DNA of 64,000 nucleotides from Eledone cirrhosa (Eukaryota): NCBI GenBank assembly GCA_964016885.1, contig OZ024745.1, positions 109,864,001 to 109,928,000 of the forward strand, read 5' to 3'. The notes under the pieces are model-generated. The model did no database searches. It saw nothing but the letters and a program-made list of their open reading frames with translations, and was not told the DNA's origin. Shown piece by piece: positions 7,215 to 32,175 of the stretch (the first letter of the stretch is position 1; each line of letters begins with the position of its first letter). The translations under genes were made by a program, and so were the position numbers.

Positions 7215-7505
7215 GTGACGTCTTCTCCCTCTTTCTGTCTCTTTCTCACACAGACACATACTCTCTCTCTAAACAAATGACGTGCCTTTTCTCTTTCTAG
7301 TTATGTACATCTCTTTCACTTGGCACTCACCCTCTCTCTATATAAATGAGGGAAATGTCGGAACTGTCTGTCACCTTGAAAACATGTTCCCTTTTCTCTC
7401 TCTATGTACATATCTCTCACTTGGCACTCCCCCTCTCTATATAAAGTGAGTGTGACAGACAGACGGACAGACGGACAGACAGAGAGTGCTCTTATTATAA
7501 TATAG
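7215..7505. mobile_element. Helentron-associated (DINE-1/HINE-like) non-autonomous element
   Basis: Internal ~110-bp direct repeats, (GACA/GACG)n microsatellite and terminal CTTATTATAATATAG. Confidence 0.45.
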
Positions 7506-7514
7506 TTGAGCTCT

Positions 7515-9300
7515 TCTTCCTGGGCGGGTAAAATTCCCGAGATCCATGGACGAGTTCTCTCCAGCGGTCTCTGTCCCTCGTTATCGCTGCCATGTCCTGC
7601 GTCTCCAACAGACCAGTGTCTGTCCTTAGGGCATCAACATACATCAACCTTGGTCTTCTTCTTCCAGTGTGTCCATGTAGGGGCTCCCACAGGAGCACTG
7701 AGTGCAATGTCAACTCTGGATGTCGGTGAGCATGTCCAGCTAACCTCAGTCTCCTCTGTGTCACTTTTGAGCTGACTTTTGGGAGGCTCCCATACAGCTC
7801 TGAGGTTTTCATCCTCATTGTATACTGATTAATGTTCAGAGCCATCCTCAGCATTCTCATGTAGCACCCTTCCACCATCTGAGTGAGTTTCTTGGTCAGT
7901 GTCCAAGTCTCAGACCCGTACAGCAGCACAGACTCCACTACAGCAATGAAGAGGCGACGAAGGTCAGACTTCCACACCGATCTCAAGCTGTGGCACGCCA
8001 CCCAGGCTTTGCTCTTCCTCTCAACTACATCATCTTCCGTATTCCCAATCTTTGCTCCCAAATACAGGAAGTCCTCAACCAATTCTAGCAGCTTCCCGCC
8101 TACATTAGTGATCCCCTCTGGCTTCTCAACATTCTCTACCAGATATTTTGTTTTAGTCTCATTCATTCTCAGCCCCACACTCATCGACACAGTCTCAACC
8201 TCCTGCATCAAATCCTCTGCCTTCTTCACTGTATTTGTCACCAAAACTATTTCATCGGCAAATTCAGCATCCGATATCTTTTTCACCTTAACTCTCCTGC
8301 TCTGACCCGGTGCCACAGTAAAGCCAGAGTCCTGGTGTTTCTCCAGTGCAAGGCGCATACAATAGTCCACTACGATGATAAAAAGGTGTGGAGGTGATGA
8401 GGGAAGAACTCTGTATCGCTTACACTGAAGCCAGAGAGGAGGCACTGATAGAGAAGATCAGAAGTGTGGAGAGAGCGGTTGACAGGTCTGGATGTAAGGA
8501 GAGCTGGATGATCATCAATGAGGTCACAGGGAGGAAGAGAAGGTATTCGAGTCAGATCCAGGGAACAGGGCCTGAGGATAGGAAAAGGCTAGACGATTTT
8601 AGGACCCTACTAGGAGAGCCGCCCTCCACAGCCCAGAGCGCTGGGGAGATCAGGCAGCTGTTTGAAGAACTTGATATTGAGACAGAGCCCTTCACCAGAG
8701 AGGAGCTTCAGAGAGCCAAGAAGAAGATCGAGGAGGGCAAGGCTCATGGAGAAGATGGAGTGGCATCAGAGGTGATGAAGAGGTGTGATTTTGATGATAT
8801 CATCCTGGGGTTCTGTAACCAGGCAATGGAGAGAGGATTGCCCCGAATCAGTGGAGGATCAGTAACATCGTCACAGTGCCAAAGAAGGGAGATCTCTCTA
8901 ACACCAACAACTACATGGGGATCTCACTGACGTCACTTGTGGCAAAGACCCTCAACAGGATGATTCTTAACAGGATCCAGCCTGAGATGGAGAAGAAGCT
9001 CAGGTACAACCAGAACGGCTTCAGAGAGGGAAGATCAACCACCAGTCACATCCCGATGCTGAGGAAGATATTAGAGGGAGCTAGAGCAAAGTGCCTTCCT
9101 GCGGTCCTGGTTTTCATTGACTTTAGGAAGGCCTTTGATTCTGTGGACCGTCACTGCCTGATGAAGATCTTACAGGCTTATGGAATCCCCAAGAAAATAG
9201 TGGACCTGATATCACTGCTCTACACCAACACCAAAGCCCAAGTCATTACACCTGATGGGATGGCAGAGTTCTTTGAGATACTGGCTGGAGTGCTCCAGGG
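7515..9300 (-). mobile_element. RTE-clade LINE, 5'-truncated with 5' inversion
   Basis: Minus 8390-7515 encodes PHLFIIVVD..FADE..FLYLG..VLLYGSETW..RLRLAGH. Plus 8390-9300 encodes the upstream RT (frameshifted) PKKGDL..NYMGISL..NQNGFR..FIDFRKAFDSV..GVLQG. Candidate TSD AGTT(G/T)AGCTCT at 7504-7514 and 9301-9311. Confidence 0.92.
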
Positions 9301-9480
9301 AGTTTAGCTCTAACTTATATATTTCTGTTTACTGAGTTGTTATTCTATGTTTTCGTCGTTTTTGTTTAGACCGATATACTCTATATTGCATGACATTTTA
9401 ACAAATATATGTGAACACTTTAGAAGAACCAAAATAATTAATTATTTCTTAATTCTGTTATCAGAATGTTCAAGGTGTTA

Positions 9481-31071: not shown

Positions 31072-31081
31072 ATATATATAT

Positions 31082-31310
31082 ACGATATTAACAAATGGAA
31101 ACTATATTTATAAAACCATATTTATTTCATTATACATATTTCAAGGATACCAAGTTAAATTATGGTATGCCTTCATCAGACAAAATACAATATATACCAG
31201 TTTTATTTTGTTAATATCGTATTTCTACTCCAAATACTTGTCGACTGCTTTATATCAGTTATAAAAATATTTGCTTGTTGTATCCTAACAATTTAAATAG
31301 AACTTTTGCA
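31082..31310. mobile_element. TA-embedded Penelope-like terminal repeat family HH-C
   Basis: Homologous to 55089-55493 and 59760-59990; bounded by (TA)n. Confidence 0.75.
31123..31187 (-). ncRNA. Minimal type I hammerhead ribozyme (HH-C)
   Basis: TATTTTGT-CTGATGA-AGGCATACCA..TGGTATCCTT-GAAA-TATGTA-TA-ATGAAATA. Confidence 0.8.
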
Positions 31311-31397
31311 TATATATATATATATATATTGGAATTTCCTATTTCAGAAGAAATACGGTATACTTAAAATAAACATTTGGAGAGCCGTAGCTATGCC

Positions 31398-31401
31398 AAA
31401 A
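31398..31401 (-). terminator. Candidate Pol III terminator (T4)
   Basis: First T4 run after the predicted start, directly after the closing stem. Confidence 0.45.
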
Positions 31402-31509
31402 CAACAGCGACTAACACTGTCTGGCAGAAGCATGGAGGGAAATCGTGGATGCGCATTTCGGACTGAGCTGGTTCTCATCAGCATAATCCCTCCCACTCTT
31501 GCAACTGCT
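31398..31509 (-). ncRNA. Predicted ~110-nt Pol III small RNA containing a type I hammerhead ribozyme
   Basis: GGAGGGATTATG-CTGATGA(31481-31475)-GAAC-CAGCTCA-GTCC-GAAA(31459-31456)-TGCGCA-TC^CACGATTTCCCTCC. Extended, interrupted stem I. The 5' (C)AGCAG pairs with the 3' CTGTTG just before TTTT. Confidence 0.75.
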
Positions 31510-31530
31510 GGTCTTTGAAAACAGGCGAGA

Positions 31531-31580
31531 ATATATAGTTTTCTCGTCTGTGTAAATGAGGTGATTAATCTCATTTGCAT
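31531..31580 (-). promoter_or_regulatory. snRNA/U6-type (type 3 Pol III) promoter candidate
   Basis: Octamer ATGCAAAT (31580-31573), PSE-like TCACCTCATTT (31564-31554), TATATAT (31537-31531), with purines 28-29 nt downstream of the TATA start. Confidence 0.55.
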
Positions 31581-31611
31581 ATGAAGCTGTATAAGTTGGC
31601 TCAACTTATAA

Positions 31612-31828
31612 TGATTTCTAATATAGACACAAGGCCAGTAATTTGTGGGGAGAGGAAAGTCGATTAAATTGACCCCAGTGTGTGACTGGTACTTTATTTT
31701 ATCGACCCCGAAAGCATGCAAGGCAAAGTTAACCTCAGCGAGATTTGAACTCATATCATAAAGGGTCGTAACTTTATGCTGCAAAGGATGGTGTCCGACT
31801 CTCTCCCTATACTGCCAATCCACCGCCC
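31612..31828 (-). mobile_element. SINE-A copy (longer variant)
   Basis: A/B boxes, core and tail as in 25561-25746, plus an extra TCGACTTTCCTCTCCCC segment. Confidence 0.9.
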
Positions 31829-32175
31829 TCGGACAACTTAAAATAGAATAGAATTACTATGCCTGGAACTAAATTGGAAACGCTCATACAAATTCGGTAC
31901 TATTTGCCTTTTCTGCATGTTGGTACGACAACTAGATTTTTTTTGCACCCTTTGGAAATTTTTGTATTTGTTTAGCACAATTGATATTCTAAATTCATCA
32001 TTTAACCCTTTACGACTTAAATTAACTTCTTATCATAGTGCTTTTATATACACACGACGGTTAAAAATTTAAAGGCGTGTTAAATATGATTTAATAAAGT
32101 GTTCGCAACATTTACTGAACATGTACTGAACGCGTCCCAACAAGTTTTTAAGAAGTTCGGAGTTTTTCCATCTCT

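Follow-up and report, generated by a model that had tools for sequence, protein, structure and literature searches.

A decayed copy of a high-copy hammerhead repeat in Eledone cirrhosa with a putative snRNA-type promoter inside the repeat unit

The locus and its surroundings

Positions 31398 to 31580 of the window, by which we mean the whole 64,000-nt stretch of Eledone cirrhosa DNA that was analyzed, had been interpreted in a preliminary description as a stand-alone, single-copy Pol III gene for a hammerhead ribozyme RNA. Direct checking of the sequence located every motif named there on the minus strand, at the places and in the order claimed, including the octamer ATGCAAAT at 31580-31573. 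What lies at the locus is almost certainly a decayed, interrupted, single-ribozyme copy of a high-copy hammerhead repeat of ~343 nt, i.e. a non-LTR retrozyme, and the copy is an ordinary decayed insertion of a member of a known element class (Table 1).

Table 1. Parts of the retrozyme copy and adjoining features, in window coordinates
Feature	Position	Strand	Remarks
Retrozyme copy, main body	31327..31612	minus	unit positions ~179 via cleavage site to ~143
Upstream remainder of the same copy	31834..31857	minus	unit ~163-189; separated from main body by inserted repeat
Short inverted unit piece at 5' end of copy	31857..31876	plus	from direct sequence reading; below BLAST map size
Inserted ~220-bp interspersed repeat	31613..31833		unrelated to the copy
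(TA)n microsatellite	31310..31328		at 3' end of copy; usual insertion site of the family
Type I hammerhead	31441..31488	minus	stem I 31488-31482 with 31447-31441; core 31481-31475; stem II; GAAA; palindromic helix III; AUC, predicted cut 31448/31447
12-mer TATGCAAATGAG	31570..31581	minus	corresponds to the proximal element of host type-3 Pol III genes; no change among families A, B, D and E
TCACCT box	31559..31564	minus	octamer +16; family D has TCAGCC and family E has CCAGCC; weak candidate for a PSE
Imperfect inverted partner of 12-mer	31549..31560	minus	10/12; hairpin arm or second site
TATA-like box	31531..31537	minus	octamer +43; most A copies read CATATAT, B1 reads GTATATAT and D reads CTATGTTT
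Predicted transcription start	31505..31508 (about 31506)	minus	placed from host geometry: TATA at -30, TCA at -57
T4 run	31398..31401	minus	inside unit; unconserved in sister subfamilies

The main body differs from the majority sequence of subfamily A by 17 substitutions and one 10-nt deletion, a divergence of 5.7%, where 29 sibling copies span 3.9-9.4%. The repeat that interrupts it has on its two sides an 11-bp duplication (31834-31844 and 31602-31612), identical but for one mismatch, and at least 10 further matches within the 64-kb window. By its sequence, the inverted piece at the 5' end reads as the inverted 5' structure of Penelope-like insertions. Only one ribozyme is present in the copy, and it is damaged, so that release of a monomer from this copy would be impossible. 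Other features of the window may be mentioned here. A hammerhead-like repeat of a distinct, AT-rich type with a long stem II lies directly after the (TA)n tract (31080-31307, minus strand) and recurs as a fold-back pair at 55187 and 55304, with a similar one at another locus (L191), and broken frames resembling LINE-type reverse transcriptase were noticed by eye on both strands of 7495-9307. An Rfam scan of the window gave, among the matches listed (150 of 161), only microsatellite-driven miRNA matches.

Copy number and insertion structure

Within the window the stretch indeed has no second copy, but the claim that it is single-copy does not extend to the genome. A search with 31380-31620 returned 2140 first-look candidates, and the 40 that were scored comprised 39 others at 84-88% identity and near full length. 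An exact 36-mer of the promoter stretch had 857 genomic matches and the exact ribozyme core of sister subfamilies had 1421, each against 0 for its control; the repeat is present in over a thousand copies. The unit is 343 nt long in subfamily A and ~322-327 nt in subfamily B, and is circularly permuted. Reading on past the T-run leads into the sequence that precedes the octamer, which places the promoter-like motifs, described earlier as an external promoter, inside the repeat unit.

Among 57 loci, 36 exceeded one unit, 24 had an inverted 5' piece and 48 ended in a dinucleotide microsatellite, a structure to be expected of non-LTR retrozymes mobilised by Penelope-like elements. The flanks of 60 loci were microsatellite or unrelated DNA, and no reverse transcriptase frame was seen adjoining the mapped copies by sequence reading. 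Ribozyme-to-ribozyme matches at unit distance numbered 65, or 59 once six rows of an unrelated satellite were removed, and promoter-to-promoter matches numbered 39, from which 20 rows of one minisatellite, three of distant relatives and one of an unrelated repeat were removed, leaving 15 that belong to this family. The promoter block of dimers is situated between the two ribozymes, and four of the 15 promoter dimers showed the full promoter-ribozyme-promoter-ribozyme order by strict motifs. A genome search for the exact A-type dimer pattern gave 0 matches; dimers surfaced with looser patterns. We also considered a linear primary transcript, with a hard stop at the predicted start, as the template for new copies, from which no two-promoter copies would be expected; 15 exist, compared with 59 two-ribozyme copies, and a circular or multimeric template therefore fits. 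One real monomer, running from ribozyme to ribozyme, folded as a circle at -94.9 kcal/mol (z -4.3, with 0/100 shuffles as good). Elsewhere in the genome, seven identical subfamily B ribozyme cores are spaced about 60 kb apart at G000:C1:143348607-143796120; two of these loci, when compared, were ~91% alike including their flanks, so that they reflect segmental duplication.

The hammerhead ribozyme

The elements of a type I hammerhead that had been described are all present, namely CTGATGA (31481-31475), a GAAC/GTCC stem II with one A-C mismatch, GAAA (31459-31456), the UGCGCA helix III and the AUC site, predicted to be cut at 31448/31447. A second A-C mismatch lies in stem I. The stem II change occurs in none of the 29 siblings, and the predicted pairing probability of stems I and II is 0.0 in the window copy compared with 0.5-1.0 in an intact B copy; in an A copy with a U-U mismatch, stem II was also lost in prediction. 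Over 33 copies, hammerhead pairing held in 92.1% of 960 cells, compared with 32-52% for slid structures. Covariation, proposed earlier as a check, was found in the form of compensatory stem changes between subfamilies A and B: three of the four pairs in stem II and two in stem I differ by a swap, and helix III stays palindromic, although these swaps amount to a handful of subfamily events and are not independent in each copy. These patterns point to a hammerhead that is under selection at the level of the family and damaged in the window copy, and it is likewise at the family level that the earlier suggestions of a true type I lineage with palindromic helix III and of a link to retrozymes are supported. 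The suggested comparison with Rfam Hammerhead_1 (RF00163) gave no match in 31350-31650 at E<=10. Its 30 best matches in the genome (L243-L272) make up one young, other family with a short stem I and inverted pairs, and the 12-mer was found in 0/30 of these loci.

The 118-nt RNA proposed for the locus, with a body of ~110 nt, folds no better than shuffled sequences (z -0.86). Its pairing ends, CAGCAG at 31510-31505 and CTGTTG at 31407-31402, are present, but the pairing stems from private mutations: CTGTTG is a private change (G in 27/29 other copies, T in none), and the partner that CAGCAG has in the family was deleted here by the private 10-nt deletion. Similarly, TATATAT (31537-31531) is present, but 21/29 close copies have CATATAT at this place; the sister subfamilies do have a TATA. 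The TTTT taken for a terminator (31401-31398) is kept in subfamily A but absent from the B1/B2 majority.

Promoters of host small RNA genes

The genes for U6 (with promoters of three types), U6atac and RNase MRP in this genome share the motif TATG[CG][AT]AAT[GT]AG at -76 to -78, followed by a G-TATA box at -30. A matrix was made from these five promoters (U6 x3 types, U6atac, RNase MRP) on reading 14 + 13 U6 loci, leaving out dispersed, pseudogene-like U6 loci without the motif. All five training genes carry the motif at -76 to -78 with scores of 18.2-21.7 bits, and both held-out tRNA-Sec genes carry it as well (21.4 and 17.1 bits). The 12-mer is thus proximal in 7/7 host type-3 Pol III promoters compared with 0/18 Pol II-type ones, the latter group (U1, U2, U4, U5, U12 and RNase P) reaching at most 9.3 bits within 300 bp. 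In host U1 and U2 genes, TCA[GA]T instead lies at -56 to -58 and is followed by a TATA-like box 23-29 nt further. All host Pol II snRNA genes read (L045-L047, L075, L107-L112, L298-L316) have a TATA-like box near -30, often with AATTAA near -90. From these sequences, it seems to be the distance to the upstream box, and not the TATA, that separates host Pol II from Pol III genes. The layout of the U6-type promoters, with the 12-mer at -77 and TATA at -30, is useful in its own right for guide RNA expression.

Two further observations concern these genes. The RNase P RNA gene (L061, G000:C24:12936134) is unlike that of RNase MRP in having a TCAGT box of the U1/U2 kind (12.4 bits) and no Pol III 12-mer, and nonetheless ends in a long T-run. 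In the U6 array at G000:C19:31.78-31.84 Mb, six of the 11 loci read (L037, L038, L040-L043) contain the ~220-bp repeat also inserted in the window copy, sitting just after the TATA with a target duplication and displacing the proximal element.

The promoter-like block and its conservation

On the matrix of five host Pol III promoters the octamer element of the window copy scores 19.5 bits, the best site of the window on either strand, and 0/20000 random units reached that score. The octamer is therefore, as had been claimed, a word of host U6-type promoters. Among 30 loci chosen by the ribozyme alone, some of which overlap earlier sets, the motif was present in 16 and a one-change version in four, and 10 were truncated before it. 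Assembled contigs from four runs of unrecorded kind, all from one study, cover the B unit including the promoter stretch and are uninformative on RNA, strand and starts.

Two older families, D (295 candidates) and E (476 candidates), have the same layout with hammerheads of their own. Families A, B, D and E are pairwise 39-81% alike with gaps counted, and the 12-mer is the longest run invariant among them, which occurred in 2/20000 permutations, a figure biased upward as to conservation since D and E surfaced through the promoter-dimer search, i.e. via the motif. Across the four families a (T/C)CA(G/C)C box stands at +16 and a TATA-like box at +42/43 from the octamer, with other parts varying in length; in family D there is no TATA, the place being taken by TATG. 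Several features of these relatives are distinctive. Family D (L213-L242, e.g. G000:C1:63223909) has a core of the form U3-U-G-A-C-A8-A, a swap from C3:G8 to U3:A8 that is fixed family-wide and has been described for a schistosome Penelope-like element (PMC4209133). Family E (L273-L297, e.g. G000:C3:263020477) and a further locus, L175, are additional old relatives bearing the 12-mer; in family E the core is canonical, the basal pair of stem II is mismatched and the site is GUC. At L192 (G000:C459:4188-5057) a 26-bp minisatellite of at least 30 units has formed from the octamer stretch, placing the promoter word in a tandem array. Twenty metagenome matches to the octamer plus a hammerhead core were set aside as chance, none of them resembling the unit or having a stem II of 4 bp.

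Transcription of the unit

As a sequence feature the promoter-like block of the family is real, and a promoter function for it is plausible. It is likely, judging from the host match and the fixed spacing, that it serves as a working promoter in the family, and, if it does, there is a good chance that the polymerase is Pol II. Taken together, we consider it reasonably probable that the locus is a non-LTR retrozyme copy in which a promoter-like block within the unit would drive the element's own transcription, probably by RNA polymerase II. An internal snRNA-type promoter as in newt satellite 2, probably used by Pol II, is the best reading. In loci with promoter-ribozyme-promoter-ribozyme order, transcription would begin some 58 nt ahead of the first cut site and traverse the unit. 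A monomer with the promoter inside it would then be released by two ribozymes, likely paired via the palindromic helix III; the monomer would be circularised and then copied into (TA)n by a Penelope-like reverse transcriptase, and every new copy would thereby inherit the promoter.

The spacing of the block is where it resembles host Pol II genes. The distance from TCA to TATA is 27 nt in the element, within the host U1/U2 range of 23-29. The PSE-like TCACCTCATTT of the preliminary description is present at 31564-31554, but on the matrix of host Pol II PSEs its TCACC reaches -4.3 bits in A and B, compared with 8.8-17.7 for host genes in leave-one-out scoring; the box in this position in families D and E and in L175 scores -0.4 to 9.5 bits, always at +16. 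In its composition the block reads as a hybrid that has no exact host model, since none of the 18 host Pol II snRNA promoters examined has the 12-mer. We propose only tentatively the fuller version, in which an old retrozyme lineage would carry within its circular RNA a hybrid snRNA promoter that places the Pol III octamer word on Pol II snRNA spacing, with distances held constant between families as little as 39% alike, its copies would be self-promoted, and spacing, rather than TATA or octamer, would select the polymerase in the host.

An explanation that we regard as unlikely is that the block is no promoter and is kept instead because it forms hairpins in the circular RNA or is recognised by the mobilising enzyme, with retrozymes arising from read-through of host transcription. 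The latter origin has been proposed in a 2020 review, in the available part of which retrozymes are said to seem to lack promoters (PMC7761336). The block as a whole does fold into three hairpins, the 12-mer is 56-76% paired in local folds and forms a hairpin arm whose partner is partly conserved in the four families (10, 10, 9 and 8 of 12 positions matching in A, B, D and E), and the weak PSE match also agrees with this explanation. However, the 12-mer arm is invariant and its partner drifts without compensatory change, unlike the ribozyme stems, a combination that favours sequence recognition, though it leaves it unproven. Nor does a purely structural role accord with a word that matches host promoters exactly and that random units did not reproduce, or with spacings at +16 and +42/43 that stay fixed while other parts change length.

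Also unlikely, and slightly more so, is that the same retrozyme carries a type-3 Pol III promoter whose spacer has been shortened, and that its product is a ribozyme RNA of ~110-120 nt or comes from leaky read-through of T4 runs. The confinement of the proximal 12-mer to Pol III genes in the host (7/7 vs 0/18) would agree with this, as would the TATA of B1, which is the U6 TATA (11.3 bits), and the sense strand of subfamily A, which has no T-run over 4. Comparison with host U6 and MRP promoters, which had been suggested as a check, matched the octamer word but not the geometry: TATA follows the element by 46-48 nt in 7/7 host Pol III genes, whereas the distance is 43 nt in A, B and D and 42 in E, and every offset of 46-48 scores negative in the element. 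T-runs terminate Pol III. The T-run at the end of host Pol III genes is T5 or longer, compared with the T4 after the ribozyme, which B1/B2 lack, and the majority unit of B1 contains a T6, with T>=5 in 36/56 unit segments (from loci that overlap); in this host a T6 in the unit would be inferred to halt Pol III ahead of a full monomer. Family D, moreover, has no TATA. The spacing of 43 versus 46-48, the unconserved T4 and the T6 inside the unit of an abundant subfamily together disfavour Pol III, and with it the kind of promoter originally proposed.

The first suggestion, that a domesticated ribozyme gene stands here by itself under Pol III or that the family originated from this locus, is highly improbable. 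The motifs do stand in the order claimed and this copy has TATATAT and T4, but there are thousands of dispersed copies, its divergence is ordinary, its stem II change is private and its stems are broken, it has one ribozyme and is interrupted by an inserted repeat, and its paired ends are products of private mutation.

Comparison with known systems

Animal retrozymes seem to have no promoters according to the 2020 review, while newt satellite 2 has an snRNA-type one; if the present reading is true, the presence in an invertebrate lineage of a promoter block that is conserved and matches those of the host would generalise the newt case. The newt promoter comprises an octamer and a PSE. A search of main texts, mostly outside subscription journals, gave no account of a promoter in mollusc retrozymes. 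In the available text of PMC7229834 'promoter' is used only for T7, the terms promoter, octamer and mollusc are absent from that of bioRxiv 10.64898/2026.07.22.740005, and the accessible portions of PMC6155905 and PMC2837043 contain nothing on promoters.

Metazoan non-LTR retrozymes have a type I hammerhead in a unit of 150-450 nt, 350-390 bp in mussel, according to the parts available of Cervera and de la Pena 2020 (PMC7229834) and Li, Clavereau and Pollet 2026 (bioRxiv 10.64898/2026.07.22.740005). The Eledone repeat resembles them, as described there, in its short palindromic helix III, its monomers and dimers, its copies exceeding one unit and the proposed role of Penelope-like elements as helpers, and differs in consisting mostly of dispersed copies of 0.5-1.7 units in (TA)n and in its conserved promoter-like block. 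Penelope-like elements, in the sections available, form partial tandems, have an inverted 5'-truncated copy and use microsatellite targets (PMC8557442), and palindromic helix III, dimers and the U3-A8 core are treated in PMC4209133. The present insertions are similar in all of these insertion features and in having type I hammerheads, unlike Penelope-like elements in that no reverse transcriptase frame was seen beside mapped copies and in that stem I is long, not that of a minimal pLTR ribozyme.

With host type-3 Pol III genes (U6, U6atac, RNase MRP and tRNA-Sec) the repeat shares the 12-mer word, and in B1 the TATA word as well, and it departs from them in its spacing of 43 rather than 46-48, in the lack of a conserved T>=5 terminator and in carrying its promoter-like block within a mobile unit. 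The schistosome Sm-alpha satellite is a hammerhead repeat with an internal Pol III promoter (as cited in the part available of PMC2220036); an internal promoter, putative here, is common to both, but there it is reported as Pol III and here the spacing and T-runs argue otherwise. Newt satellite 2 is a hammerhead repeat of ~330 bp whose internal snRNA-type promoter is used by Pol II (as cited in the same part of PMC2220036). On that description the two are alike in being hammerhead repeats of similar size with an snRNA-type promoter, putative in Eledone, inside the unit, and they differ in that the Eledone repeat belongs to another phylum, is dispersed rather than in long arrays, has as its octamer the word of the host's Pol III genes, and has a promoter that is predicted.
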